A stretch of 64,000 nucleotides of DNA from an uncultured Dehalococcoidaceae bacterium (lineage in GTDB: Bacteria > Chloroflexota > Dehalococcoidia > Dehalococcoidales > RBG-16-60-22): positions 1,749 to 65,748 of the forward strand of contig CAYQZZ010000004.1 of assembly GCA_964422155.1 (NCBI GenBank), in the 5' to 3' direction. Made by a program: the position numbers and the translations under genes. A model generated the notes under the pieces. It was not told the origin of the DNA, made no database searches, and saw nothing but the letters and a program-made list of their open reading frames with translations. Of the stretch, positions 4,614-64,000 are shown one piece after another; the stretch's first letter is position 1, and each line of letters opens with the position of its first letter.

Positions 4614-5834
4614 CTAATTATCTTTGTCCAGCTCAAAAGCCCGATGCAAGGCGCGAATGGCGTCTTTTACCCTAGCCTCGTCAATAATACAGGTTATTCT
4701 TATTTCCGATGTCGTGATAAGCTGTATGTTGATGTTTTCTTTGCTGAAGGTATCGAACATGCGGGCAGCGTAACCCGGTGCATTCTGCATGCCAGTACCG
4801 ATGATGCTGACCTTCCCCAACTTCGAATCGCTGACACATTTCTCCGCACCGATAGAACGCGCTATCGGCTCAACGACCGCCATTGCTCCGGCCAGCTGGC
4901 TCCTCGCCACCGTGAAGGTAAGGTCGGTAATATTTTTTATACTGGCGTTCTGGACGATGGTATCGATACTGATTCCGGCCTCCGCCAGAGGTACGAATAT
5001 CCCCGCGGCGATACCGGGATGGTCGGGAACGCCGACCACGGTTATCTTGGCTACATCAAGGTCATGGGCTATGCCTCTCACTTTATTTCGTATTTCCATA
5101 GACACCTCTTTATGAATCAACGTACCGGGGTTCTCATTATAGCTCGAGGCGACCAGTATGGGGACGCTGAACACCTCGCCCAGCTCAACGGCGCGGGGAT
5201 GTATCGCCTTGAACCCGTAGGTCACCATCTCCAGCATTTCCTCGTAGCTTATTTCCGGTATTTTCCGAGCCTCGTTTAGAAGGCGGGGGTCGGTGGTATA
5301 AATCCCATCGACATCGGTGTACCTTTCGCATACCTTAGCCTTCAGGCTGGCGGCCAGTGCCACCGCCGTGGTATCCGAGCCACCCCTCCCCAGGGTAGTG
5401 ATATCCATGTCGTCGGTAATGCCCTGGAAGCCAGCCACAATGACGATATTACCTTTCTCCAGCTCCCTGACGATACGTGCGGGGTCGATATTGGTAATCC
5501 TCGCCCGACTATAGGCGGCATCGGTCCTGATGCCTGCCTGAAAACCGCTGAGGCTGATGGCCGCATGGCCCATGCTATGCAACGCCATTGCCAGCAGGGT
5601 GCTGGCGACTAATTCACCGGTGGAGAGCAGGACATCGAGCTCGCGCGTATCCGGCTTTCCGGTAATTTGATAAGCCAGCTTGACTAAGTCGTCGGTGGTG
5701 TCACCCATCGCGGAGACGACAACCACCACCTGGTTGCCGGCCTCCTTAGTTTTGACGATACGCCGGGCGACGTTTTTAATTTTTTCAGCATCAGCCACCG
5801 ACGAGCCGCCGTATTTCTGGACGATTAAAGGCAT
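4614..5834 (-). CDS. lysC: Aspartate kinase
   Basis: 406 aa. N-terminal VQKYGGSSV, GRGGSDTTA, two C-terminal ACT-like regions. Confidence 0.93.
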   Translation of the reverse strand: MPLIVQKYGGSSVADAEKIKNVARRIVKTKEAGNQVVVVVSAMGDTTDDLVKLAYQITGKPDTRELDVLLSTGELVASTLLAMALHSMGHAAISLSGFQAGIRTDAAYSRARITNIDPARIVRELEKGNIVIVAGFQGITDDMDITTLGRGGSDTTAVALAASLKAKVCERYTDVDGIYTTDPRLLNEARKIPEISYEEMLEMVTYGFKAIHPRAVELGEVFSVPILVASSYNENPGTLIHKEVSMEIRNKVRGIAHDLDVAKITVVGVPDHPGIAAGIFVPLAEAGISIDTIVQNASIKNITDLTFTVARSQLAGAMAVVEPIARSIGAEKCVSDSKLGKVSIIGTGMQNAPGYAARMFDTFSKENINIQLITTSEIRITCIIDEARVKDAIRALHRAFELDKDN

Positions 5835-5896: not shown

Positions 5897-6116
5897 AATT
5901 AAATAATCTCTGCAACCATGATGGTTTCCCTCTTGGTCCATAACTGGGAGATGGGAAAGGCTTTCCATACATCCGGCAGCTCTCATTGGCACATTCCCAC
6001 CAGCCTCTTTGCCGTCTACTTTTATACAGGTAATTTCCTCGACCACAAAAGGGGCAAAGCGCCTTACTACGAGGTTCTTTTTCTCCTGCCGAATATTCCT
6101 CCTCCCTGGAAGGCAT
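5877..6116 (-). CDS. Possible small zinc-ribbon protein
   Basis: 79 aa with CPFC...17 aa...CANESC. GAGAGG lies 9 nt upstream of the ATG and overlaps the apgM stop. The C-terminus overlaps the octamer repeat, so the call is uncertain. Confidence 0.3.
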   Translation of the reverse strand: MPSREEEYSAGEKEPRSKALCPFCGRGNYLYKSRRQRGWWECANESCRMYGKPFPSPSYGPRGKPSWLQRLFNCKRAFE

Positions 6117-6122
6117 CTCAAG

Positions 6123-7310
6123 TTACCTCTCTACCAACTTCCCCATTATTTTATACCCTTCCTCCACAAAAACTCCAGTTCTTTTTGCTTCGTTTTCGGT
6201 GAACCTTTTAGCACCGTTAGGTTTTATTCCCTGCCCCCAGATTAAAAATGGCACAGGTTCGGCGGTGTGTGTACGGACTGTTATCGGGGTGGGGTGGTCG
6301 GGCATAATCAGGACCCGCAAATCTTCCCCCCGACATGATAAGAGACGACTTATGACTTCTTCATCTATTTTCCGAATGGCCTCTATTTTACCGTCGATAT
6401 CGCCTTCATGGCCGGCTTCATCGGGCGCCTCGATATGGACCACCACCAGGTCGTGCTTTTTGAGAGATTCTAAAGCGCCGACCACCTGAGCAGCATTGTC
6501 GTTATCGGGACCATCGGTCACACCCTTAATATTCAGGATATCCATGCCAACCATCCTGGCCAGTCCTCTTAAGAGGTCGACCCCTGACGTCATGGCGGCA
6601 GCTAGACCATAAACCTTTTTAAAGGCGGGCATATCCGGCACCTGACCGCTGCCCCAGAAAAGCCAGATAGTGGTAACGGGCGGTTCGCCCCGTTTCTCGC
6701 GTCCTACGTTGATTTTATGACCTCTCAGCAGGGTCTCAGAGCGCGCCATGAGGTTGCGCAGGAAGTCGCTGCCCACACCCCTGGGCAGGTATTCTTTCAC
6801 GAGCCTGCCGGGGATATCGTGGGGCGGGGTACAGGTGGCTTTCAAGGTTTCCTTATGCCCTTTTATTTTTAATATATGCCGGTAGCTGACGCCGGGGTAA
6901 AATTTTACTTCATCGTTTCCGATTTCTTCATTAAGTGCCTTGATAATTTCCCCGGCCTCATCGGTGCTGATATGTCCGGCGCTGTAGTCAAACATCTTAC
7001 CGTCCCGTACCGTCACCAGGTTGCACCGAAAAACTACCTCCCTTTCGCCGATATCTATATCCAGGCTCTTTGCCTCGATAGATGCCCGACCTTTGTAATA
7101 AATCGTCGGGTCATATCCCATTACCGACATACAGGCGCAGGCGCTGCTCGGCTCTAAACCCGGTGGTACGGTACGCACCAGCCCCGATGTTCCCTCTACT
7201 GCCATCGCATCAAAGTTGGAGGTCCGGGCTAGCTCCAGGCAGGTCTGGCCGCCGCGCTCCTTTAGAGGCAGACCGGCGGCTCCATCAATTATCAGAACGC
7301 AGTATTTCAT
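6123..7310 (-). CDS. apgM: Cofactor-independent phosphoglycerate mutase, archaeal type (ApgM family)
   Basis: 395 aa with LIIDGAAG, HIEAPDEAGHEGD and MPDHPTP motifs. Confidence 0.88.
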   Translation of the reverse strand: MKYCVLIIDGAAGLPLKERGGQTCLELARTSNFDAMAVEGTSGLVRTVPPGLEPSSACACMSVMGYDPTIYYKGRASIEAKSLDIDIGEREVVFRCNLVTVRDGKMFDYSAGHISTDEAGEIIKALNEEIGNDEVKFYPGVSYRHILKIKGHKETLKATCTPPHDIPGRLVKEYLPRGVGSDFLRNLMARSETLLRGHKINVGREKRGEPPVTTIWLFWGSGQVPDMPAFKKVYGLAAAMTSGVDLLRGLARMVGMDILNIKGVTDGPDNDNAAQVVGALESLKKHDLVVVHIEAPDEAGHEGDIDGKIEAIRKIDEEVISRLLSCRGEDLRVLIMPDHPTPITVRTHTAEPVPFLIWGQGIKPNGAKRFTENEAKRTGVFVEEGYKIMGKLVER

Positions 7311-9092: not shown

Positions 9093-10031
9093 CTAGCCGG
9101 GCAGCACCGACCCGATGAAGTCCCGCTGTCCCCTCAGAAAATCTGCGGCGTTTACAGCTCTTTTACCCGCGAGCTGCACCTCGAGCACGCCCAGTATACC
9201 CTCGCCGCAAGCGATACCCAGCACTACCTCGCTTCCGGGGAGAGCCACCACCCGCCCTGCTTCTAAAGTACCCCCGCCAGGCAGGACTGCCGCCTCGATG
9301 ATTTTAAGCTGTTTGCCCCGCCAGGTCGTATAACACCCGGGCCAGGGATAGTAAGCCCGCACACGCCGCCAGATTGCCACCGCCGGCAGCCGCCAGTCAA
9401 TTTCTCCATCCCCCTTTTTGACCTGCGGGAAATAAGTAGCCCCCTTATCATCCTGGGGTCGGGGCGTAATTTCGCCGCGACACCATCCTATCAGGGCTTC
9501 CTGAAGCAGGTCCGCCCCTACTAAAGAAAGCTTATCGGTGAGCGTCCCGGCATTATCCCGCGGCGATACCGGCACAGCGGCCATCGATAGTATGGGACCG
9601 GTATCCAGTTCCTTCCGTATAAGCATGATGCTGACCCCGGTAAATTCATCACCGGCAAGTATCGCTGCCGTCACCGGCGAGGCTCCGCGGTGCCTGGGCA
9701 GCAAGGAAAAGTGGACATTAACGCACTGGTAAGGCGGGATGTCCAGTACCGTTTGCGGCAGAATATGTCCGAAGGCGCATACAACGATTACATCGGGTTT
9801 GAACTCTGCCAGCCGCGTTATCGCTTCCTCCGACCTGAAACTGGCAGGCTGTACCACCGGCACTCCCCACCTCAGGGCCGCCTTTTTTACCGGCGGAGGA
9901 ACCAGAGCACGCCCGCGCCCGGCAGGCCTGTCCGGCTGGGTATAAACAGCAACAACATCATACCGATTGACGAGAAGGTGCTCCAGAGATGGCACGGAAA
10001 ACTCGGGCGAACCCATGTAAACAATTCTCAA
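9093..10031 (-). CDS. fmt: Methionyl-tRNA formyltransferase
   Basis: 312 aa. MRIVYMGSPEF...VVAVYTQPDRPAGRG...NVHFSLLPRHRGASP. Confidence 0.93.
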   Translation of the reverse strand: MRIVYMGSPEFSVPSLEHLLVNRYDVVAVYTQPDRPAGRGRALVPPPVKKAALRWGVPVVQPASFRSEEAITRLAEFKPDVIVVCAFGHILPQTVLDIPPYQCVNVHFSLLPRHRGASPVTAAILAGDEFTGVSIMLIRKELDTGPILSMAAVPVSPRDNAGTLTDKLSLVGADLLQEALIGWCRGEITPRPQDDKGATYFPQVKKGDGEIDWRLPAVAIWRRVRAYYPWPGCYTTWRGKQLKIIEAAVLPGGGTLEAGRVVALPGSEVVLGIACGEGILGVLEVQLAGKRAVNAADFLRGQRDFIGSVLPG

Positions 10032-56583: not shown

Positions 56584-56611
56584 TTGACAGGTATGACATA
56601 AATGATATAAT
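56584..56611 (+). promoter_or_regulatory. Sigma70-like promoter upstream of the cupin gene
   Basis: TTGACA, 16-nt spacer, TATAAT. A leader of about 120 nt follows. Confidence 0.5.
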
Positions 56612-56738: not shown

Positions 56739-57194
56739 ATGGCTAAGACAAAATATGGAAAATACGTCATAAAGGCACCTACCCTGAAAGGGGACTTCCC
56801 GCCTTTGGCGCAGAGAATGGTCTATGACGGCCTTACCAAAGGCGGTATCGGAAATGTCGGCATAAGATATTCATACTTTTACGGGCCTCCCTTCCAGTTC
56901 GAGGTCCCTCACAAGCATGATTATGACCAGTTCCTGTGTTTCCTGGGCACCCCGGAGGATGTCAGGGTTTTCGATGCGGAAGTTGAGATATGGCTGGGCG
57001 ATGAAATGGAAAAACACACCATAACCGAGTCCACCATCGTCCATGTCCCCGCCGGATTGCTTCACTGCCCTATGAATTACAAGCGGATAAGCAAGCCCAT
57101 CATGCTTATCAATATCACGCTCGGCGGCGAATATATTAAGAAGAGCGCTAAGGGCGAAATAATGCCCTGGCGACCCGATATGCCCAAGAAATAG
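56739..57194 (+). CDS. Cupin-fold protein, function unknown
   Basis: PHKHDYDQ...VHVPAGLLHCP resembles the two cupin motifs. AGGAGG upstream. Confidence 0.55.
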   Translation: MAKTKYGKYVIKAPTLKGDFPPLAQRMVYDGLTKGGIGNVGIRYSYFYGPPFQFEVPHKHDYDQFLCFLGTPEDVRVFDAEVEIWLGDEMEKHTITESTIVHVPAGLLHCPMNYKRISKPIMLINITLGGEYIKKSAKGEIMPWRPDMPKK

Positions 57195-57260: not shown

Positions 57261-57335
<75 letters not shown>

Positions 57336-57549: not shown

Positions 57550-57578
57550 TTGACTTTTCATTTAGGCATTGATATACT
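57550..57578 (+). promoter_or_regulatory. Near-consensus sigma70 promoter of the corrinoid/methyltransferase cluster
   Basis: TTGACT, 17-nt spacer, TATACT, 90 nt upstream of the ATG at 57668. Confidence 0.55.
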
Positions 57579-57667: not shown

Positions 57668-58303
57668 ATGCCCAAGGATTTTGTCAATCTGTTAGCTGAC
57701 CTGAAAGAGGATGAGGTTCTTAAACTAACCAGGCAAAGACTTGAGTCCAAAGAAGACCCGATGAAAATCCTGGAGGACAGCCGAAAGGGCATGGAAATCG
57801 TAGGCAAGCGTTTTGCCGACGGCGAGTATTTCCTGCCGGAGCTTGTCTTTTCCGGTGAGCTTATCAAGCAAATTACCGAGATAGTAAAACCCCATCTTAC
57901 CAAGTCATCGGCTAAAATCAAGCGTCTGGGCAAGGTTGTCATCGGCACGGTAGCCGGTGATATTCATGATATCGGCCTGAACATCGTTGATTTCATGCTG
58001 GACGTCAATGGTTTTGAGGTTACCAACCTCGGTGTCGACGTACCTGCGGAAAAGTTCGTCAAGGCGATGAAAGATACCAAGGCACCCGTTCTCGGTTTAA
58101 GCGGATTCCTTACCCCCGCCTTCGACGCCATGAAAGAGACCGTCGAGGCTCTGGACAAGGCTGGACTGAGGAAAAATATCAAAATCATGATTGGCGGCGG
58201 CCAGATGGACGATGAGGTCAGGAAGTACGCCAAGGCCGATGCCTTTGGTAAAGACGCTATGGCGGCGGTGGCTCTATCCAAGAAGTGGATTGGTGTTAGC
58301 TAA
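57668..58303 (+). CDS. Corrinoid (cobalamin-binding) protein, MtaC/MtbC-like
   Basis: N-terminal helical cap domain and a Rossmann B12 domain with the GDIHDIG (DxHxxG) lower-ligand motif. Confidence 0.88.
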   Translation: MPKDFVNLLADLKEDEVLKLTRQRLESKEDPMKILEDSRKGMEIVGKRFADGEYFLPELVFSGELIKQITEIVKPHLTKSSAKIKRLGKVVIGTVAGDIHDIGLNIVDFMLDVNGFEVTNLGVDVPAEKFVKAMKDTKAPVLGLSGFLTPAFDAMKETVEALDKAGLRKNIKIMIGGGQMDDEVRKYAKADAFGKDAMAAVALSKKWIGVS

Positions 58304-58304
58304 T

Positions 58305-59639
58305 ATGGCAAAAACCTGGGGGGAGTTATCTCCGGATGAAAAGCGGGAAGAACGCTTCAAGCGCTGGCTTTCTCCCTCGGGTATTGCTTTCTCCAGCCCG
58401 CAGACCGGGAAAGCTTATAAGGAGAGGGTAACCAGGTTATCCAGAGCCTTTCAGTTGAAAAAGCCTGATAGGGTACCCTGTATCCTGCCGGCGGGTAATT
58501 ACCCGGCCTACTATGCCGGGACAGACCTCCATACCGTCATGTATGACTACGATGAACTGAAACGTGCCTGGCTAAAATTCCTTCACGACTTTGATAAGGA
58601 TATGGACACCTATACCCCTCCCGGTATGGTCCCCCCGGCTAGAGCCCTGGAGGCTGTGGACTATAAGCTGTATAAATGGCCCGGCCACGGGATAGCTGGT
58701 AATACGACGTCATATCAGTGCGTTGAAGCCGAATGGATGAAAGCCGACGAGTACGATGCCCTCATCAAAGACCCCTCCGACTTCTGGCTGCGTACCTATA
58801 TGCCGCGGGTCTTCGGCGCTTTTAAAGCATTCCAGCAGCTCCCGCCCCTGACCAGCTTCGAAGAAATCGCCATCCAATCTTTCGTACCCTTCGGACTTCC
58901 GGATGTTCAGGCCGGATTCCAGGCTTTGCTGGAGGCCGGTAGGGAAAGCCTGCGATGGATAGCCGTAGTCGGTGCCGTCGCCGGTGAGGCGATGGCGGCG
59001 GGATTCCCCGGTATCCTGGGCGGCATGGCCAAGGCCCCGTTCGACACCCTCGGGGATACCCTGCGGGGTACTCAGGGGATAATGATGGACATGTTCCAGA
59101 GGCCGGATAAACTTCACGAGGCCATGGAAAGAATCGCCCCACTGACCATCAAATCGGCCATATCCTCGGCCGACGGCGGCGCCGCGCCTTTGGTATTCAT
59201 GCCCCTGCATAAGGGTGCTGATAGCTTCATGTCCGTCAAACAGTACGAGACCTTCTACTGGCCCACCTTTAAAAAGGTCGTCATGGCCCTGGTCAATGAA
59301 GGTATCGTGCCGATACTGTTCGCCGAGGGCAGCTATAACAAGCGCCTCGATATTATCGGCGATTTCCCGAAAGGCTCGGTAGCCTGGTATTTCGACCAGA
59401 CCGATATCTTCAGGGCTAAAGAGGTGCTCGGGGATACCTGCTGCATTATCGGCAACATACCTACCTCATTGCTGATGACGGGTACGCCGCTGCAGGTCAA
59501 GGAACACTGCCGCAAGCTCATCGAGGGCTGCGGCAAAGGCGGGGGTTATGTACTGGCCGGCGGCGCTCAGATTGATGAGGGTAATCCGGAAAATCTACGC
59601 GCCATGATGGCTGCCGCGAAAGAATACGGCGTATATTAA
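58305..59639 (+). CDS. UroD/MtaA-superfamily methyltransferase paralog 1
   Basis: 444 aa. Start MAKTWGELSPDEKREERFKRWLSP lies 1 nt after the corrinoid gene stop. The track start at 58191 overlaps that gene. Shares PFDxxGDxLRG and MPLHKG motifs with paralogs 2-4. Confidence 0.8.
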   Translation: MAKTWGELSPDEKREERFKRWLSPSGIAFSSPQTGKAYKERVTRLSRAFQLKKPDRVPCILPAGNYPAYYAGTDLHTVMYDYDELKRAWLKFLHDFDKDMDTYTPPGMVPPARALEAVDYKLYKWPGHGIAGNTTSYQCVEAEWMKADEYDALIKDPSDFWLRTYMPRVFGAFKAFQQLPPLTSFEEIAIQSFVPFGLPDVQAGFQALLEAGRESLRWIAVVGAVAGEAMAAGFPGILGGMAKAPFDTLGDTLRGTQGIMMDMFQRPDKLHEAMERIAPLTIKSAISSADGGAAPLVFMPLHKGADSFMSVKQYETFYWPTFKKVVMALVNEGIVPILFAEGSYNKRLDIIGDFPKGSVAWYFDQTDIFRAKEVLGDTCCIIGNIPTSLLMTGTPLQVKEHCRKLIEGCGKGGGYVLAGGAQIDEGNPENLRAMMAAAKEYGVY

Positions 59640-59778
59640 GAAGAAATAACCAGATCTCAAGGTACAATAACCAAACTTCTTGGTCATTAATTATTGAATA
59701 TTGGAATTTGTTTGGTGCTTGTATCTTGGTTATTGGTTATTCCTTACACAGCTAGCAATAAAACGTGAGGCAACGGTA
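59640..59778 (+). promoter_or_regulatory. Conserved structured intergenic element, copy IG1
   Basis: Block A aaataaccagatctcaaggtacaataaccaa. Block B ttggtcattaattattgaatattggaatttgtttggtgcttgtatcttggttattggttatt. 59690..59742 is identical to 61195..61247 (53 of 53 nt). Confidence 0.6.
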
Positions 59779-61122
59779 ATGGAAGGGGTAAATAACTGGG
59801 AAAAACTGACCTGGCAAGAGAAGCGTGAAGAACGGTTCAAGCGGTGGCTTTCTCCCTCAGGGGTGAAATTCAGCAGCCCGGAAGCCGCGAAAAAATATAA
59901 AGCCCGCGCCACCCGGATGATGAAAGCCATCAAGATGGAGATGCCGGACCGCGTTCCGGTTCATTTAGCCACCGGTTCTATCGTCGCCTACAACGCCGGG
60001 TTAACACTTCAAGACGTCCTCTATGACTATGACAAGATAAAGCCCGCCTGGATAAAATTTCTTAATGACTACGACCAGGACTCGGCTGACAGCCCCGGAT
60101 TTTTCTCAGGCAGGGTCTATGAAATCCTTGACTATAAAGTGAACAAGTGGCCGGGGCACGGCCTGCCGTCCAATCAGACGATGCAGCAGTTCGTGGAAAA
60201 AGAATACATGCAGGCGGATGAGTATGACCTTTACATGAAAAACCAGTTCGACTACGGTGCGCGGTACCTGCTGCCGCGCATGTGGGGTATCTTTGAGCCA
60301 CTGGCAAATGCCCCGCCGTTTACCTCTTACCAGGGGCTGCCACAGCAGCTCATGATGATGTGCCAGGACCCGGCTTTCCAGAGACTCTTCAAGGCTATCT
60401 GGAAGGCCAGCCGGGAAAACGTTAAGTGGCAAAAAGTCGGCGACGATTGCCGCCAGATTTCTCTGGAAATGGGTTTTCCTCCCTTGATGGGTGGCATGGC
60501 GCTGGCGCCTTTTGATACCATTGCCGATATGCTAAGGGGTACCTACGGTTCTGTTATGGACATGTACCGGCAGCCGGAAAAACTGCTCGAAGCTCTGGAA
60601 GTAATTACGGAGCGGAGTTTAGAATCGGCCGTGAATATGGTCAATATGTCTCGCAGCCCGATAGTATTTGTCCCGATGCACAAGGGCGATGACAGTTTTA
60701 TGTCCGTCAAGCAGTTCGAAAAGTTCTACTGGCCCACGTTCCGTAAGCTCCTCCTGGGCTGTATTAACGAGGGCTGCGTGCCGATGATGGTTATCGATGG
60801 CAGCTATAATAGTGCCCGCCTGGAAATTATCAAGGAACTGCCCCGGACATCGGTCGTGTGGACCATGGAGAAGACGGATATGTTCAAGGCCAAGGAAATC
60901 CTGGGCAATTCCGCCTGTATTGCCGGCAATGTCACCGCGGCGCAGCTTTATACGCAGACTCCGCAGGTCATTAAAGAGTACTGCCGCAGGCTCATTGAAG
61001 TCTGCGGTAAAGGCGGCGGTTATATCCTGTCGCTTGGCTCCGGCATTGATAAGTGCAACCCGGCAAACCTGCATGCCATTATTGACGCTGCCAGGGAATA
61101 CGGCATCTATAAGAAGAAATAA
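59779..61122 (+). CDS. UroD/MtaA-superfamily methyltransferase paralog 2
   Basis: 447 aa, start MEGVNNWEKLTWQEKREERFKRWLSP with GTGAGG upstream. Confidence 0.8.
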   Translation: MEGVNNWEKLTWQEKREERFKRWLSPSGVKFSSPEAAKKYKARATRMMKAIKMEMPDRVPVHLATGSIVAYNAGLTLQDVLYDYDKIKPAWIKFLNDYDQDSADSPGFFSGRVYEILDYKVNKWPGHGLPSNQTMQQFVEKEYMQADEYDLYMKNQFDYGARYLLPRMWGIFEPLANAPPFTSYQGLPQQLMMMCQDPAFQRLFKAIWKASRENVKWQKVGDDCRQISLEMGFPPLMGGMALAPFDTIADMLRGTYGSVMDMYRQPEKLLEALEVITERSLESAVNMVNMSRSPIVFVPMHKGDDSFMSVKQFEKFYWPTFRKLLLGCINEGCVPMMVIDGSYNSARLEIIKELPRTSVVWTMEKTDMFKAKEILGNSACIAGNVTAAQLYTQTPQVIKEYCRRLIEVCGKGGGYILSLGSGIDKCNPANLHAIIDAAREYGIYKKK

Positions 61123-61284
61123 CCAAATCTCAAGGTACAATAACCAGACAATAACCAATAACCAAATTTAAATAATCAAGCTTTTTGGTCATTGATTATT
61201 GAATATTGGAATTTGTTTGGTGCTTGTATCTTGGTTATTGGTTATTCTTTACCAGAGCTCGCAATGAAACGTGAGGCAACGGCA
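61123..61284 (+). promoter_or_regulatory. Conserved structured intergenic element, copy IG2
   Basis: Same A and B blocks, plus extra aataacca boxes (acaataaccagacaataaccaataaccaaa). Confidence 0.6.
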
Positions 61285-62625
61285 ATGGAACGTGTAAATA
61301 ATTGGGAAAAACTGTCCCGGGGGGAGAGGCGGGAGGAGCGGTTCCGGCGGTGGCTTTCACCCGATGTTAAATTCAACAGTCCACAGGCTAGGAAACTCTA
61401 TAAAGAGCGAGTCACGAGATTTATCAAGGCCATCAAGCTGGAAGAGCCTGACCGCGTCCCGGTTATGCTGCCGGTGGAATATTACCCGGCCTACTATGCC
61501 GGCGGTAATCTCAAGAAGGTCATGTATGATTACGATGAGTTGAAGCGCGCCTGGCTGAAATTTATAGAAGAATTCGATATGGATTCGTTCAACAGTCCCA
61601 GCCTTGTCTTTCCCGGTAAAGTGCTGGACATGATTGACTATAAAATACAGAAATGGCCCGGGCATGGCCTCGCTGATGATGCCCCGTCACACCAGTTTAT
61701 CGAAGGCGAGTATATGCCGCCCGGGGAATATGATGCCCTTATCAAAGACCCGGCTGATTATCTTCTCAGGTACTTTTTACCCCGCTCCAATGGCGCTTTA
61801 AGGAGCTTCAGTAAGCTTAGCCCGATAACACCCTTTGTCGGTATACCGGTCTTCTACATAGCAAATTTCGGCGACCCTGATATACGTGCGGCGTACCTGA
61901 AGCTTCTGGAGGCCGGCCAGGAATGTATAAAGTGGATGGCCGCCGTCGGTGAAGTCAGCCAGGCGTCGCTGGCGGCCGGATTCCCCACCGTGTGGGGCGG
62001 CATGTCCGGGGCGCCCTTTGATATGATTGGCGATTGGCTGAGAGGCACCCAGGGCATAATGATGGACATGTTCCAGCGGCCGGATAAGCTCCACGAGGCC
62101 ATGGAAAGGCTGGTGCCCATAGCTATTGATGAAACGGTCAGCTCGGCAAACGCCTCCGGCTGCCCGATTATCTTCATGCCGCTGCATAAGGGGACCGGCG
62201 GTTTCATGTCCAACAGGCAGTTCGAGACTTTCTACTGGCCAACTCTTAAGAAAGTTATGATGGGTCTGATTAACGAGGGCCTCGTGCCCATGCCTTTTGC
62301 GGAAGGCAACTATGAGCCCCGCTTGGAGATTATCAGAGAGATGCCTATGGGCTCGGTGATATGGTTTTTCGAACAGATGGATATGGCCCATGCCAAGAGG
62401 GTTCTCGGTGGTAATGCCTGTATCGCCGGTAATTTACCTGCCTCGGTACTGTGCACGGGCACGCCACAGCAGGTCAAGGATTATTGCCGTAAGCTCATCG
62501 AGGTCTGCACGCCGGGCGGCGGTTATATACTGACGGCTGCCGTGCACATGGATAAAGGTAACCCGGACAACCTGCGCGCCATGATGGAAGCGGCTAAAGA
62601 GTATGGGGTGTATAAGGAGAAATAA
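61285..62625 (+). CDS. UroD/MtaA-superfamily methyltransferase paralog 3
   Basis: 446 aa, start MERVNNWEKLSRGERREERFRRWLSP, chosen by analogy with paralog 2. Confidence 0.8.
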   Translation: MERVNNWEKLSRGERREERFRRWLSPDVKFNSPQARKLYKERVTRFIKAIKLEEPDRVPVMLPVEYYPAYYAGGNLKKVMYDYDELKRAWLKFIEEFDMDSFNSPSLVFPGKVLDMIDYKIQKWPGHGLADDAPSHQFIEGEYMPPGEYDALIKDPADYLLRYFLPRSNGALRSFSKLSPITPFVGIPVFYIANFGDPDIRAAYLKLLEAGQECIKWMAAVGEVSQASLAAGFPTVWGGMSGAPFDMIGDWLRGTQGIMMDMFQRPDKLHEAMERLVPIAIDETVSSANASGCPIIFMPLHKGTGGFMSNRQFETFYWPTLKKVMMGLINEGLVPMPFAEGNYEPRLEIIREMPMGSVIWFFEQMDMAHAKRVLGGNACIAGNLPASVLCTGTPQQVKDYCRKLIEVCTPGGGYILTAAVHMDKGNPDNLRAMMEAAKEYGVYKEK

Positions 62626-62797
62626 TCAAATCTCAAGGTACAATAACCAAGATACAAGATACAATAACCAAACAATGAACAATAACTAAATTCTAATAAC
62701 CAAACGAGTTTGTAGCGTTTGGTCATTGGATATTGAAATTTGTTTGGAATTTGTATCTTGGTTATTGGTTATTTAGATTAAAAGGGGGTATTTGAAT
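62626..62797 (+). promoter_or_regulatory. Conserved structured intergenic element, copy IG3
   Basis: The 16-nt aataaccaagatacaa is perfectly complementary to ttgtatcttggttatt, and ccaaacaa to ttgtttgg. Five aataacYa boxes are present. Confidence 0.6.
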
Positions 62798-64000
62798 ATG
62801 GCTAAAACTAAGAAATGGGAAAAGCTGACCTGGCAGGAAAAACGCGAAGAGCGCTTTAAAAGATGGCTTTCACCGCCGGACGTGAAATTCGTCAGCAAGG
62901 AAGCTGAAAAGCTCTACAAGCAAAGGGTGACCAGGTTTATCAAGGCCATCAAGCTGGAAGAGCCCGACCGCGTGCCGGTGATGCTGCCGACCGGTAATTA
63001 CCCGGCTTACTGGGCAGGGGCGAACTTCCGGACGTTAATGTATGACTATAAAAAGGCGCACCAGATATGGATAAAATACATGGAAGCTTTCGGGGACATG
63101 GATATATTTAACGGGCCCGGTCTCGTCCCTTCGGGGAAGATAGCGGAAGTCGTTACTTCCAAGCTCCAGAAACTGCCCGGCCTGGGCTTGCCCGATGACG
63201 CCTCGATGAACCAGTTCGTCGAGGGCGAATACATGATGGCCGATGAGTACGACCTTCTGATGATGGACCCCACCGACTACAACCTGAGAGTCATGCTGCC
63301 CCGCACCACTCCCCTCTTTGAATCATTCAAGAAGCTGCCGCCCATCCGCTCCCTCATGGGCACATCGTGGGTTGCCGTACTCTCTGACCCGAAAATACGC
63401 AAGACGTTCCAGGCCCTCATGGACCTGTCCGATGAACACAAACGATGGCAGAGAGCTAACATGAGGATTAACAAATACATCAGGTCACAGGGATATCCTT
63501 CCTTATTCGGCGGCGGCCCCATGGCCGGGGCGCCCTTCGACCACTTTGCCGATGCCCTGCGGGGAACTCATGGCGTCGTCATGGACATGTACCGCCAGCC
63601 GAAGAAGCTGCATGAGGCCATGGAATTCTGGTTGAACATGATGATTGAAACATCTATCAAGAATTTCCCGATGACAAATAGCCCTATTTGCATGATGCCT
63701 CTGCACAAGGGTGATGATACCTTTATGTCCGATAAACAGTTCGAGGAATTCTACTGGCCTTATCTGCGGGGGGTCTTCATGGCCATGATTAACGAGGGTC
63801 TTGTGCCGATGCCGTTCGCCGAGGGCCGGTACAATAACCGCCTCAAGCAGATTGCGGATACGCCCAGGAGCGGCGTCGTCTGGTACTTCGACCAGACGGA
63901 TATGGCCCAGGCGAAAAAAATTATCGGCGATATCTGCTGTATTGCCGGCAACGTGCCCACCTCGGTGGTGATGACCGGCACCGTCAAGCAGGTGAAAGAG
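62798..64000 (+). CDS. UroD/MtaA-superfamily methyltransferase paralog 4 (3' end off the window)
   Basis: Absent from the track because there is no stop in the window. ATG at 62798 after AAAGGGGG. My translation MAKTKKWEKLTWQEKREERFKRWLSPPDVKF...PFDHFADALRGTHGVVMDMYRQP...MMPLHKGDDTFMS... stays open to 64000. Confidence 0.78.
   Translation, partial: MAKTKKWEKLTWQEKREERFKRWLSPPDVKFVSKEAEKLYKQRVTRFIKAIKLEEPDRVPVMLPTGNYPAYWAGANFRTLMYDYKKAHQIWIKYMEAFGDMDIFNGPGLVPSGKIAEVVTSKLQKLPGLGLPDDASMNQFVEGEYMMADEYDLLMMDPTDYNLRVMLPRTTPLFESFKKLPPIRSLMGTSWVAVLSDPKIRKTFQALMDLSDEHKRWQRANMRINKYIRSQGYPSLFGGGPMAGAPFDHFADALRGTHGVVMDMYRQPKKLHEAMEFWLNMMIETSIKNFPMTNSPICMMPLHKGDDTFMSDKQFEEFYWPYLRGVFMAMINEGLVPMPFAEGRYNNRLKQIADTPRSGVVWYFDQTDMAQAKKIIGDICCIAGNVPTSVVMTGTVKQVKE

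Follow-up and report, generated by a model that had tools for sequence, protein, structure and literature searches.

Four methyltransferase (MT) paralogs, MT1 to MT4, follow one another in a 64-kb stretch of DNA from an uncultured Dehalococcoidaceae bacterium (64,000 nucleotides of contig CAYQZZ010000004.1, here called the window), and the three intergenic (IG) spacers between them, IG1 to IG3, are better conserved than the genes they separate. This raises the question of whether the spacers hold a regulatory device dedicated to the methyltransferases, as an earlier sequence-only reading of the same DNA had considered, or a sequence with a history of its own. Pairwise identity among the spacers is 71-86%, compared to 49-58% at the protein level and 62-66% at the DNA level for the paralogs, and the observation behind the question is thus sound. 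The spacers are probably copies of a dispersed, non-coding hairpin repeat, selfish or tolerated, which is not part of the design of the methyltransferase operon; one of the three copies arose by gene conversion, and transcripts of the repeat would be cut by RNase III. Spacer conservation is accounted for by membership of a repeat family together with this one conversion event. For this locus the outcome is deflationary, as the conserved spacers say nothing specific about the regulation of corrinoid methyltransferase paralogs. The family is unusual as a repeat and ordinary as an explanation of methyltransferase spacers.

Heptad-repeat hairpins in the methyltransferase spacers

The spacers are poor in G+C (29-35%, against 52% for the whole window) and each folds as a single long imperfect hairpin, an AT-rich palindrome of about 105-140 nucleotides (nt). 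The minimum free energies of the predicted RNA folds are -38.2, -48.4 and -49.2 kcal/mol for IG1, IG2 and IG3 (z = -3.7, -7.1 and -9.2), the AU-rich stems comprise 45-55 bp, and the 3' end of the element lies 24-38 nt ahead of the next start codon. A perfect complement of 16 bp that the sequence-only reading had placed in IG3 belongs to IG2 (61150-61165 with 61231-61246), and IG3 has one of 17 bp (62641-62657 with 62751-62767). The same reading let a shared block begin at the stop codon of the upstream gene, which is true of IG2 and IG3, where the AAATAA end of the element itself supplies the stop codon TAA, and not of IG1, where the MT1 stop codon lies 5 nt upstream of the block. A 53-nt block is identical base for base in IG1 and IG2 (59690-59742 and 61195-61247), as had been claimed. 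It is separated from the downstream start codon by 37 nt in IG1 and 38 nt in IG2, which upholds the earlier argument from a one-nucleotide shift in frame that the block is non-coding; the gene starts given at that time were off by one base. Shorter words are concentrated in the spacers as well. The 23-mer TTGTATCTTGGTTATTGGTTATT is present once per spacer with 0 copies expected by chance, and AATAACCA has 16 copies in the window compared to 2.1 expected, 15 of them within the three spacers. The corrinoid protein gene that opens the array ends 1 nt ahead of the MT1 start, and this junction holds no element.

The sequence-only reading had overlooked that both arms of the hairpins are periodic, with a period of 7 nt. 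The left arm is built of 7-nt words ending in CAA and reads AAATAACCAAG.. GATACAA TAACCAA ACAATGA CCAATAA CCAAATT CCAATAA CCAAAC, while the right arm is made up of complementary TTGnnnn words and terminates in TTGTATCTTGGTTATTGGTTATTT. In the arms of the wider family described below the self-identity at lag 7 is 0.53, compared to 0.29 in shuffled sequences, and 400 of 566 distances from one TTG to the next in the right arms are exactly 7 nt; TTGGTTA, TTGTATC, TTGTTTG and TTGGAAT are the most frequent words. Within the window the periodicity is confined to the three spacers. The units stand head to tail in intergenic DNA as in heptanucleotide tandem repeats, and here they are degenerate and arranged in two complementary arrays. 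The left end of the IG3 copy (bases 62621-62641) is a duplication of 21 nt, or three times seven, forming a direct repeat with a spacing of 21 in the stretch 62621-62682, which fits growth of the arm through slippage in 7-nt units. Long runs of GATACAA/TTGTATC are seen in other loci, for example L100 and L127.

A dispersed family that varies among related arrays

The repeat is not restricted to this array. A 20-mer from its conserved right end, GTATCTTGGTTATTGGTTAT, has more than 119 exact matches in a collection of contigs from one genome per species, and the element counts given for these loci refer to the 119 matches listed. The metagenome-assembled genomes (MAGs) that contain it are labelled Omnitrophota, Planctomycetia, Saccharibacteria and other Patescibacteria, Elusimicrobia, Saganbacteria/WOR-1, Chloroflexota and Dehalococcoidales; multiple copies within a single MAG are frequent, and some of the contigs are 0.8-2 Mb long. 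IG2 and IG3 are 77-86% identical to copies in other phyla over their full length of 130-150 nt. IG2 matches an Omnitrophota copy (L030) at 84.6% over 136 nt and a copy in a Chloroflexota MAG (L045) at 85.7% over 133 nt, and IG3 matches L030 at 84% over 144 nt. Nineteen aligned copies have an identical word order from end to end, and an nhmmer profile made from this alignment recovers 162 distinct elements across the 119 loci. A non-coding hairpin of about 140 nt that keeps the order of its words at roughly 80% identity across MAGs with different phylum labels is one of four notable aspects of this family, the others being the strict period of 7 nt, the mutual replacement or nesting of copies with different vocabularies in a given spacer, and the physical linkage to PF05635 genes in a fixed polarity.

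The genomic context of the copies was analysed with the elements masked before open reading frames (ORFs) were called, since the TTG-rich arm lengthens ORFs. The great majority of full-length copies (57 of 67) lie between co-directional genes, with five between convergent and five between divergent ones. Among the co-directional copies 36 are oriented as in the window and 21 are reversed, a split that is not significant at 0.05 (normal approximation). The copies fill the spacer: the upstream gene often stops at the TAA of the terminal AAATAACC, and the next gene starts a few to about 40 nt further on. The neighbours are ordinary, unrelated housekeeping genes, encoding Mfd, ArgRS, M50 peptidase, ABC-2, AI-2E and GT9 proteins, and the family is not tied to UroD-like methyltransferases, a link that the sequence-only reading had wanted checked. 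Intergenic repeats of the REP, ERIC and Correia kind behave in this way, unlike a dedicated regulator or an integron array, and the colonisation of short co-directional spacers in many uncultivated phyla points to a selfish or tolerated repeat. The ends are palindromic (AAATAACCAAG and CTTGGTTATT(T)), and in these ends and in its many dispersed, non-coding copies the family resembles a classical miniature inverted-repeat transposable element (MITE). In some copies the flanks prolong the stem (GAAATAACC/GGTTATTTC).

BLAST searches with the element found no match in plasmids or phages, nor in any of the 5,426 complete E. coli genomes. A scan of IMG/VR placed the 20-mer in only 2 contigs, and the element is therefore not evidently virus-borne. 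No description of the family was found in the open-access literature, where absence is weak evidence; literal strings of the element occur there in unrelated primers only, and nothing specific on MITE or REP elements in these phyla was found in the same literature. In a few loci the 20-mer falls in apparently coding sequence: L015 (around 230-330), where it may be part of a signal peptide (MKNIGNWLLGLGYSLVIVSWLLVIPASA), and L078 (around 700-800) and L096 (around 5480-5560), which encode N/Q/T-rich low-complexity proteins. These matches are probably coding coincidences, with exapted arms as the alternative to chance.

Related arrays show that the element is dispensable. Orthologs of MT2 are numerous (72-89% identity) and come mostly from Dehalococcoidales, and four contigs (L122, L123, L124 and L126) keep the order of the array, namely corrinoid protein, MT1, MT2, MT3, MT4, further methyltransferases and a pterin-binding methyltransferase, except that L124 is without an MT3 ortholog. 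Orthologs are 71-95% identical compared to 47-64% for paralogs, which makes the paralogs much older than these genomes. The spacers follow a different pattern. Between MT1 and MT2 the window and L123 share the element, while L122, L124 and L126 have a different, mutually conserved sequence of about 95 nt. Between MT2 and MT3 the window has the element, L122 has the ends of the element with a different hairpin nested inside, and L123 and L126 have no element. Between MT3 and MT4 the window has the element, L122 keeps its flanks with the apex swapped for a hairpin of ACAGT/ACTGT heptads, and the spacers of L123 and L126 are only 33 and 27 nt long; overall, empty orthologous spacers measure 17-33 nt. 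It follows that the array can do without the element, which is polymorphic among close relatives. A scattered element, and homologous clusters that lack it in several spacers, are the two outcomes that the sequence-only reading had itself named as speaking against a dedicated function.

The sequence of about 95 nt that is orthologous to IG1 (L122:3052-3152, L124:5906-6000 and L126:5905-6000) has a predicted stem-loop of 20 pairs with one compensatory change, and could be a genuine ancestral intercistronic element of the array that was overwritten in the window. The ACAGT/ACTGT hairpins (TTAACAG.../...AACTGTT, with a C-rich loop) make up a second family in the array of the closest relative, where they occur either by themselves or within the apex of a window-type element (L122:4491-4648, 5990-6183 and 9147-9249). 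Such exchanges are not peculiar to this cluster. Two related Omnitrophota MAGs whose flanks are 82-84% identical carry heptad hairpins with wholly different words in the same spacers, AATAACC-type against AGTAGTT-type at one site (L080:2141-2288 and L056:2280-2400) and AATAACC-type against GAAATAC-type at another (L056:4374-4569 and L080:4530-4690); the site thus keeps a heptad hairpin, but one of another sequence. Extra heptad hairpins nested in an existing apex are found in another pair of MAGs as well as between the window and L122. To judge by these alignments, nesting and swaps suggest that hairpins insert into the apices of others or that one takes the place of another.

The close likeness of IG1 and IG2 has a separate cause. 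MT2 begins with 30 nt that match MT3 and the MT3 of L122 at 90% identity and their true ortholog, the MT2 of L122, at only 54%. Beyond nucleotide 30, in successive segments of 30 nt, the identity of MT2 to the ortholog is 80-100% (93-100% with a single exception) and that to the paralog 40-80%. At the other side MT1 tracks the MT1 of L122 through GGCGTATAT and then turns into an MT2-type end, AAGAAGAAATAACC. These switches in identity show that the MT1/MT2 junction received a copy of some 175 nt from the MT2/MT3 junction, with the tract anchored in conserved coding motifs at the C-terminus (...EYGVY) and the N-terminus (W.E.TWQEKREERF). Gene conversion explains the 53-nt perfect match without selection on the spacer, and it bears out the suggestion of concerted evolution made by the sequence-only reading, now with mapped breakpoints. 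The IG2 and IG3 copies predate the split from the closest relative found and the IG1 copy arose by conversion. This history explains the apparent excess of conservation in the spacers: ancient paralogs are separated by younger or homogenised copies of one repeat, and annotators should be aware that in paralog arrays such spacers mimic conserved regulatory RNAs.

The coordinates of the array are collected in Table 1. A perfect sigma-70-like promoter match (TTGACA, 16-nt spacer, TATAAT, with TG upstream) at 56584-56611 on the plus strand precedes an ORF of 151 amino acids at 56739-57194, and a match of 10 out of 12 positions lies at 57550-57578, also on the plus strand, 5' of the corrinoid protein gene. 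Both are likely operon promoters. A tRNA gene is located between them on the minus strand (57264-57335). In two of the related arrays (L124:2413-3375 and L126:12570-13332) a transposase of the rve family lies just upstream and a phage-type integrase just downstream of the array, which suggests that the whole methyltransferase cluster sits in a plastic region.

Table 1. Features of the methyltransferase array and PF05635 genes in hairpin apices; positions refer to the window unless a locus is named
Feature	Position	Strand	Remarks
Corrinoid (B12-binding) protein gene	57668-58303	+	First gene of the array; Pfam B12-binding, B12-binding_2
MT1, URO-D-family methyltransferase paralog	58305-59639	+	Pfam PF01208; L122 ortholog 95% identical
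Spacer IG1	59640-59778		
Spacer IG2	61123-61284		
Spacer IG3	62626-62797		
MT2, URO-D-family paralog	59779-61122	+	Stop is the TAA within the AAATAACC end of the IG2 element
MT3, URO-D-family paralog	61285-62625	+	Stop is the TAA within AAATAATC, the duplicated left end of the IG3 element
MT4, URO-D-family paralog	62798 to beyond 64000 (window edge)	+	Pfam PF01208; L122 ortholog 92% identical
GAGG Shine-Dalgarno of MT2	59767-59770	+	Read from the sequence; outside the hairpin, 8 nt 5' of the ATG
IG1 heptad-repeat hairpin copy	59641-59745	+	nhmmer against family seed, E = 1e-21; left arm shorter than that of IG2
IG2 heptad-repeat hairpin copy, full length	61113-61250	+	nhmmer E = 1e-34
IG3 heptad-repeat hairpin copy	62621-62776	+	nhmmer E = 4e-35; hairpin proper 62642-62773
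Gene-conversion tract of IG2/MT3-5' type	59635-59808 (breakpoints approximate)	+	MT1 end past GGCGTATAT, all of IG1, first ~30 nt of MT2
Apex PF05635 gene	L046:1786-2112	+	
Apex PF05635 gene	L119:2814-3104	-	
Apex PF05635 gene	L044:4873-5214	+	
Apex PF05635 gene	L066:5343-5741	+	
Apex PF05635 gene	L052:1968-2504	+	Frameshifted

The PF05635 link and the reading of the hairpins

A search for a transposase between facing half-elements led to PF05635 proteins instead, encoded by a small ORF that lies between the two halves. PF05635 is the 23S rRNA intervening-sequence (IVS) protein, an Avd-like four-helix bundle that is not known to act as a transposase; the protein forms a toroidal pentamer. PF05635 genes occupy the apex of the hairpin in five out of five such cases among the 20-mer loci (Table 1). 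In an independent sample of 80 metagenome loci (L127-L206), picked on the PF05635 protein alone, an arm of the family directly adjoins the PF05635 gene in 46, other loci having heptad arms with other vocabularies, and the polarity is the same in all 38 arms that could be scored, CA-rich upstream and GT-rich downstream of the gene. The 23S rRNA IVS of Coxiella is described as a selfish element whose terminal inverted repeats form a stem that is cleaved by RNase III, with an S23p ORF in the loop and a variable number of tandem heptameric repeats just upstream of this ORF (PMC4990558). IVSs are distributed sporadically over distant taxa, which has been ascribed to horizontal transfer (PMC4990558). 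A PF05635 gene in the apex, heptads and a stem thus give the long forms of the family the layout of an IVS, and by analogy the window copies look like the ORF-less form of such a family.

It is proposed that the element is transcribed within a polycistronic mRNA. The three spacers are free of terminator-like and promoter-like sites and good promoter-like sites lie upstream, from which it can be inferred that the spacers are transcribed together with the operon. The transcript would form an imperfect duplex along the AU-rich stem with the upstream stop codon in its base, and by analogy with the ORF-carrying relatives of the 23S IVS type this duplex would most likely be a substrate of RNase III. 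Cleavage would separate the cistrons and alter the stability of the transcript segments. The Shine-Dalgarno sequence of each downstream gene lies outside the stem and translation should hence not be blocked, and the element may be tolerated as translation is left undisturbed. A more far-reaching proposal, tentative and on balance doubtful, is that the heptad hairpins are the ORF-less form of an IVS-type element that spreads horizontally across phyla, whose long form carries the PF05635 gene in its apex. Such an element would insert preferentially into spacers and the apices of existing hairpins and would be tolerated in operons and rRNA since RNase III removes or cuts the stem, and the PF05635 pentamer may recognise the 7-nt words. 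If so, the spacers of the window would correspond, in mRNA, to the IVSs of 23S rRNA, and a handle on the function would be gained through the family for the roles of PF05635 proteins outside diversity-generating retroelements.

Several observations weigh against the reading of the spacers as dispersed repeats whose transcripts are cut by RNase III. The nhmmer profile matches only the three spacers in the 64-kb window, all in this one array, and this view of the source genome leaves some room for a local role. The sense strand folds 2.5-8 kcal/mol better than its complement in all three window copies, which would fit selection at the RNA level. The seed alignment has no direct repeat at the ends that could be a target-site duplication, and syntenic comparisons of filled and empty sites gave no clean insertion boundary, because related genomes hold different hairpins at the site rather than empty sites. 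No transposase or other mobility mechanism was identified, and no autonomous relative with a transposase and the same ends was found, the long forms carrying a PF05635 gene instead. Among the loci examined no copy lies inside an rRNA gene or overlaps conserved rRNA motifs, and RNase III cleavage of these mRNA hairpins is itself drawn from analogy. The DNA of a locus labelled Omnitrophota (L002) and one labelled Planctomycetia (L083) is 93% identical over 3.3 kb; at least one of the two labels must be wrong, and independent phyla are fewer than the labels imply. Long contigs nevertheless uphold the occurrence of the family in Chloroflexota, Omnitrophota, Patescibacteria, Elusimicrobia and Saganbacteria.

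The better fold of the sense strand and the confinement of the heptads to one array within the window, together with the precise placement of stable hairpins between cistrons, are also what would be expected of a dedicated cis-regulatory RNA, be it an attenuator, a riboswitch-like leader or a regulated processing site that sets the expression ratios of the paralogs. This explanation is nevertheless very improbable, given that the same element occurs in both orientations in unrelated operons of other phyla, that relatives keeping the same genes have orthologous spacers without it, and that the spacers contain no terminator-like or promoter-like sites. The spacers matched no Rfam family of known regulatory RNA: at the gathering threshold the window yields only two tRNAs, located elsewhere, and a permissive search of 59500-62900 gives chance-level miRNA and sRNA matches only (E at least 0.08). 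Nor is there strand asymmetry in the family as a whole, where the transcribed and the other strand of 57 copies differ by a median of -0.06 kcal/mol (p = 0.34). In 58 copies, no copy-specific compensation between arms was detected in a test of limited power, since heptads can slip in register: duplexes of a copy's own arms reach -44.9 kcal/mol compared to -41.4 kcal/mol for chimeric ones, and the own partner is the best in 2 of 58 cases with a median rank of 22 of 58. Own arms pair only slightly better than chimeric arms, which makes pairing a property of the shared vocabulary. The scatter through unrelated operons and the absence from orthologous spacers also tell against an operator array for these genes or for the neighbouring IclR regulators, another suggestion of the sequence-only reading. 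An intrinsic terminator consists of a short G+C-rich stem followed by a U run, and with AU-rich stems of 45-55 bp and no terminator-like site in the spacers this candidate, or an attenuator of that type, was rejected, as was a promoter.

Integron attC sites have R''/R' cores of the form RYYYAAC...GTTRRRY and follow unrelated, promoterless cassettes beside intI/attI. The tandem genes of the array, which share one strand and are each followed by an imperfect palindrome of 105-140 nt with AAC...GTT near its ends, and whose spacers are more alike than the genes themselves, recall a cassette array that shuffles methyltransferase genes by means of attC-like hairpins. That this is the case is barely conceivable. 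The context and the core sequence largely refute it: the ends AAATAAC/GTTATTT do not fit the attC cores, relatives keep the order of genes whether or not they have the element, the supposed cassettes are ancient paralogs in a fixed order rather than unrelated genes, elsewhere the element is a singleton in ordinary operons in either orientation, and there is no integrase among the scanned genes adjoining the array.

Alternatively, the 7-nt words could be the sites of an oligomeric nucleic-acid-binding protein, for instance a pentamer of the PF05635/Avd-like kind, a cold-shock-domain protein or S1, which would make the repeat a global post-transcriptional or DNA-level platform and the hairpin secondary. 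The strict periodicity, solo arms without a partner (as in L010, L038 and L102), the linkage of arms to PF05635 genes with fixed polarity and the interchangeability of arms from different copies as pairing partners all speak for this, and S1, Csp or CsrA are the proposed binders of intergenic TAACTGA heptamers in Beggiatoaceae, Cyanobacteria and Bacteroidetes (PMC4679880). On the other hand the binder would be a candidate named by analogy and the 64-kb window has no PF05635 gene, and quite different vocabularies in the same spacer of related genomes are hard to square with one sequence-specific binder, while 7-nt repeats can also stem from replication slippage, a view cited in the same work (PMC4679880). 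A protein that reads the words is therefore unlikely, though it keeps some credit. An element with no effect at the RNA level, serving as a near-identical patch of DNA that promotes ectopic recombination or conversion between neighbouring paralogs, is quite improbable. The mapped conversion tract does span one spacer and the family has no signal of orientation, strand or covariation, yet the breakpoints lie in the flanking coding motifs, so that the genes and not the element are the anchors, and long AU-rich duplexes in mRNA are rarely inert, the relatives of the element being RNase III substrates (PMC4990558). A purely neutral element is conceivable as well. The dispersed, tolerated hairpin repeat remains the probable account of the three spacers.

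Comparison with known systems

The IVSs of Coxiella, Leptospira and others interrupt the 23S rRNA gene at helix 25 or 45. Like these, the heptad family has a long stem of terminal inverted repeats, in its long forms tandem heptameric repeats beside an apex PF05635/S23p ORF, a location inside a transcribed region whose function is not destroyed, and a sporadic distribution over distant taxa (PMC4990558). It differs in that the window copies lack an ORF and are located in mRNA spacers rather than in rRNA helices, in that no copy of the family was seen in an rRNA gene, and in its arms of 50-65 nt of degenerate heptads compared to the 28-bp stem of the IVS. Insertion into a 23S rRNA helix was rejected for the window copies, which sit between protein genes.

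In size and position the window copies resemble the enterobacterial repetitive intergenic consensus (ERIC, also known as IRU) of Enterobacteria and the Correia element (NEMIS) of Neisseria, which are palindromic intergenic repeats of 100-155 bp whose RNA hairpins are processed by RNases, affecting mRNA stability. All are imperfect palindromes of similar length that are found in many copies and in either orientation in transcribed operon spacers. There is no similarity in sequence, however, no duplication of a TA target is seen in the heptad family, and heptad words and a spread across phyla contrast with the restriction of ERIC and Correia to a single family or genus.

Repetitive extragenic palindromes (REPs) and the composite BIMEs and REPINs form a further group, of which REPs and REPINs are associated with RAYT transposases. 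They too are palindromic, extragenic, present in many copies and often located within operons, and roles in mRNA stabilisation have been proposed for them (PMC3733652). REPs are 20-40 bp long, carry GTAG/CGTC tags and are lineage-specific, whereas the heptad consensus has no such tag; with a length of 105-150 nt the family was rejected as a REP or REPIN.

Cyanobacterial short tandemly repeated repetitive (STRR) sequences, with units such as TTGGTCA and CAACAGT, were reportedly described by Mazel and colleagues in 1990. Intergenic repeats of the heptamer TAACTGA are known from Beggiatoaceae, Cyanobacteria and Bacteroidetes (PMC4679880). The heptad hairpins share with both the 7-nt unit and the intergenic location, often right before start codons, as well as a spread across phyla without a known mechanism of transfer (PMC4679880). 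TTGGTCA is itself a word in the right arms of the window copies, and the second hairpin family, nested in the array of L122, is made of ACAGT/ACTGT words. STRR and TAACTGA repeats are direct arrays of one unit, while here two complementary degenerate arrays form a hairpin, and whole copies of the heptad family are homologous, at about 80% identity over 140 nt, with a conserved order of words. The nearest described systems are accordingly ORF-bearing 23S IVSs, repeats of the ERIC/Correia type and the STRR and TAACTGA heptamers, and the family connects the heptamer repeats of cyanobacteria and Beggiatoa, the IVSs of 23S rRNA and stand-alone Avd-like proteins in one testable picture.

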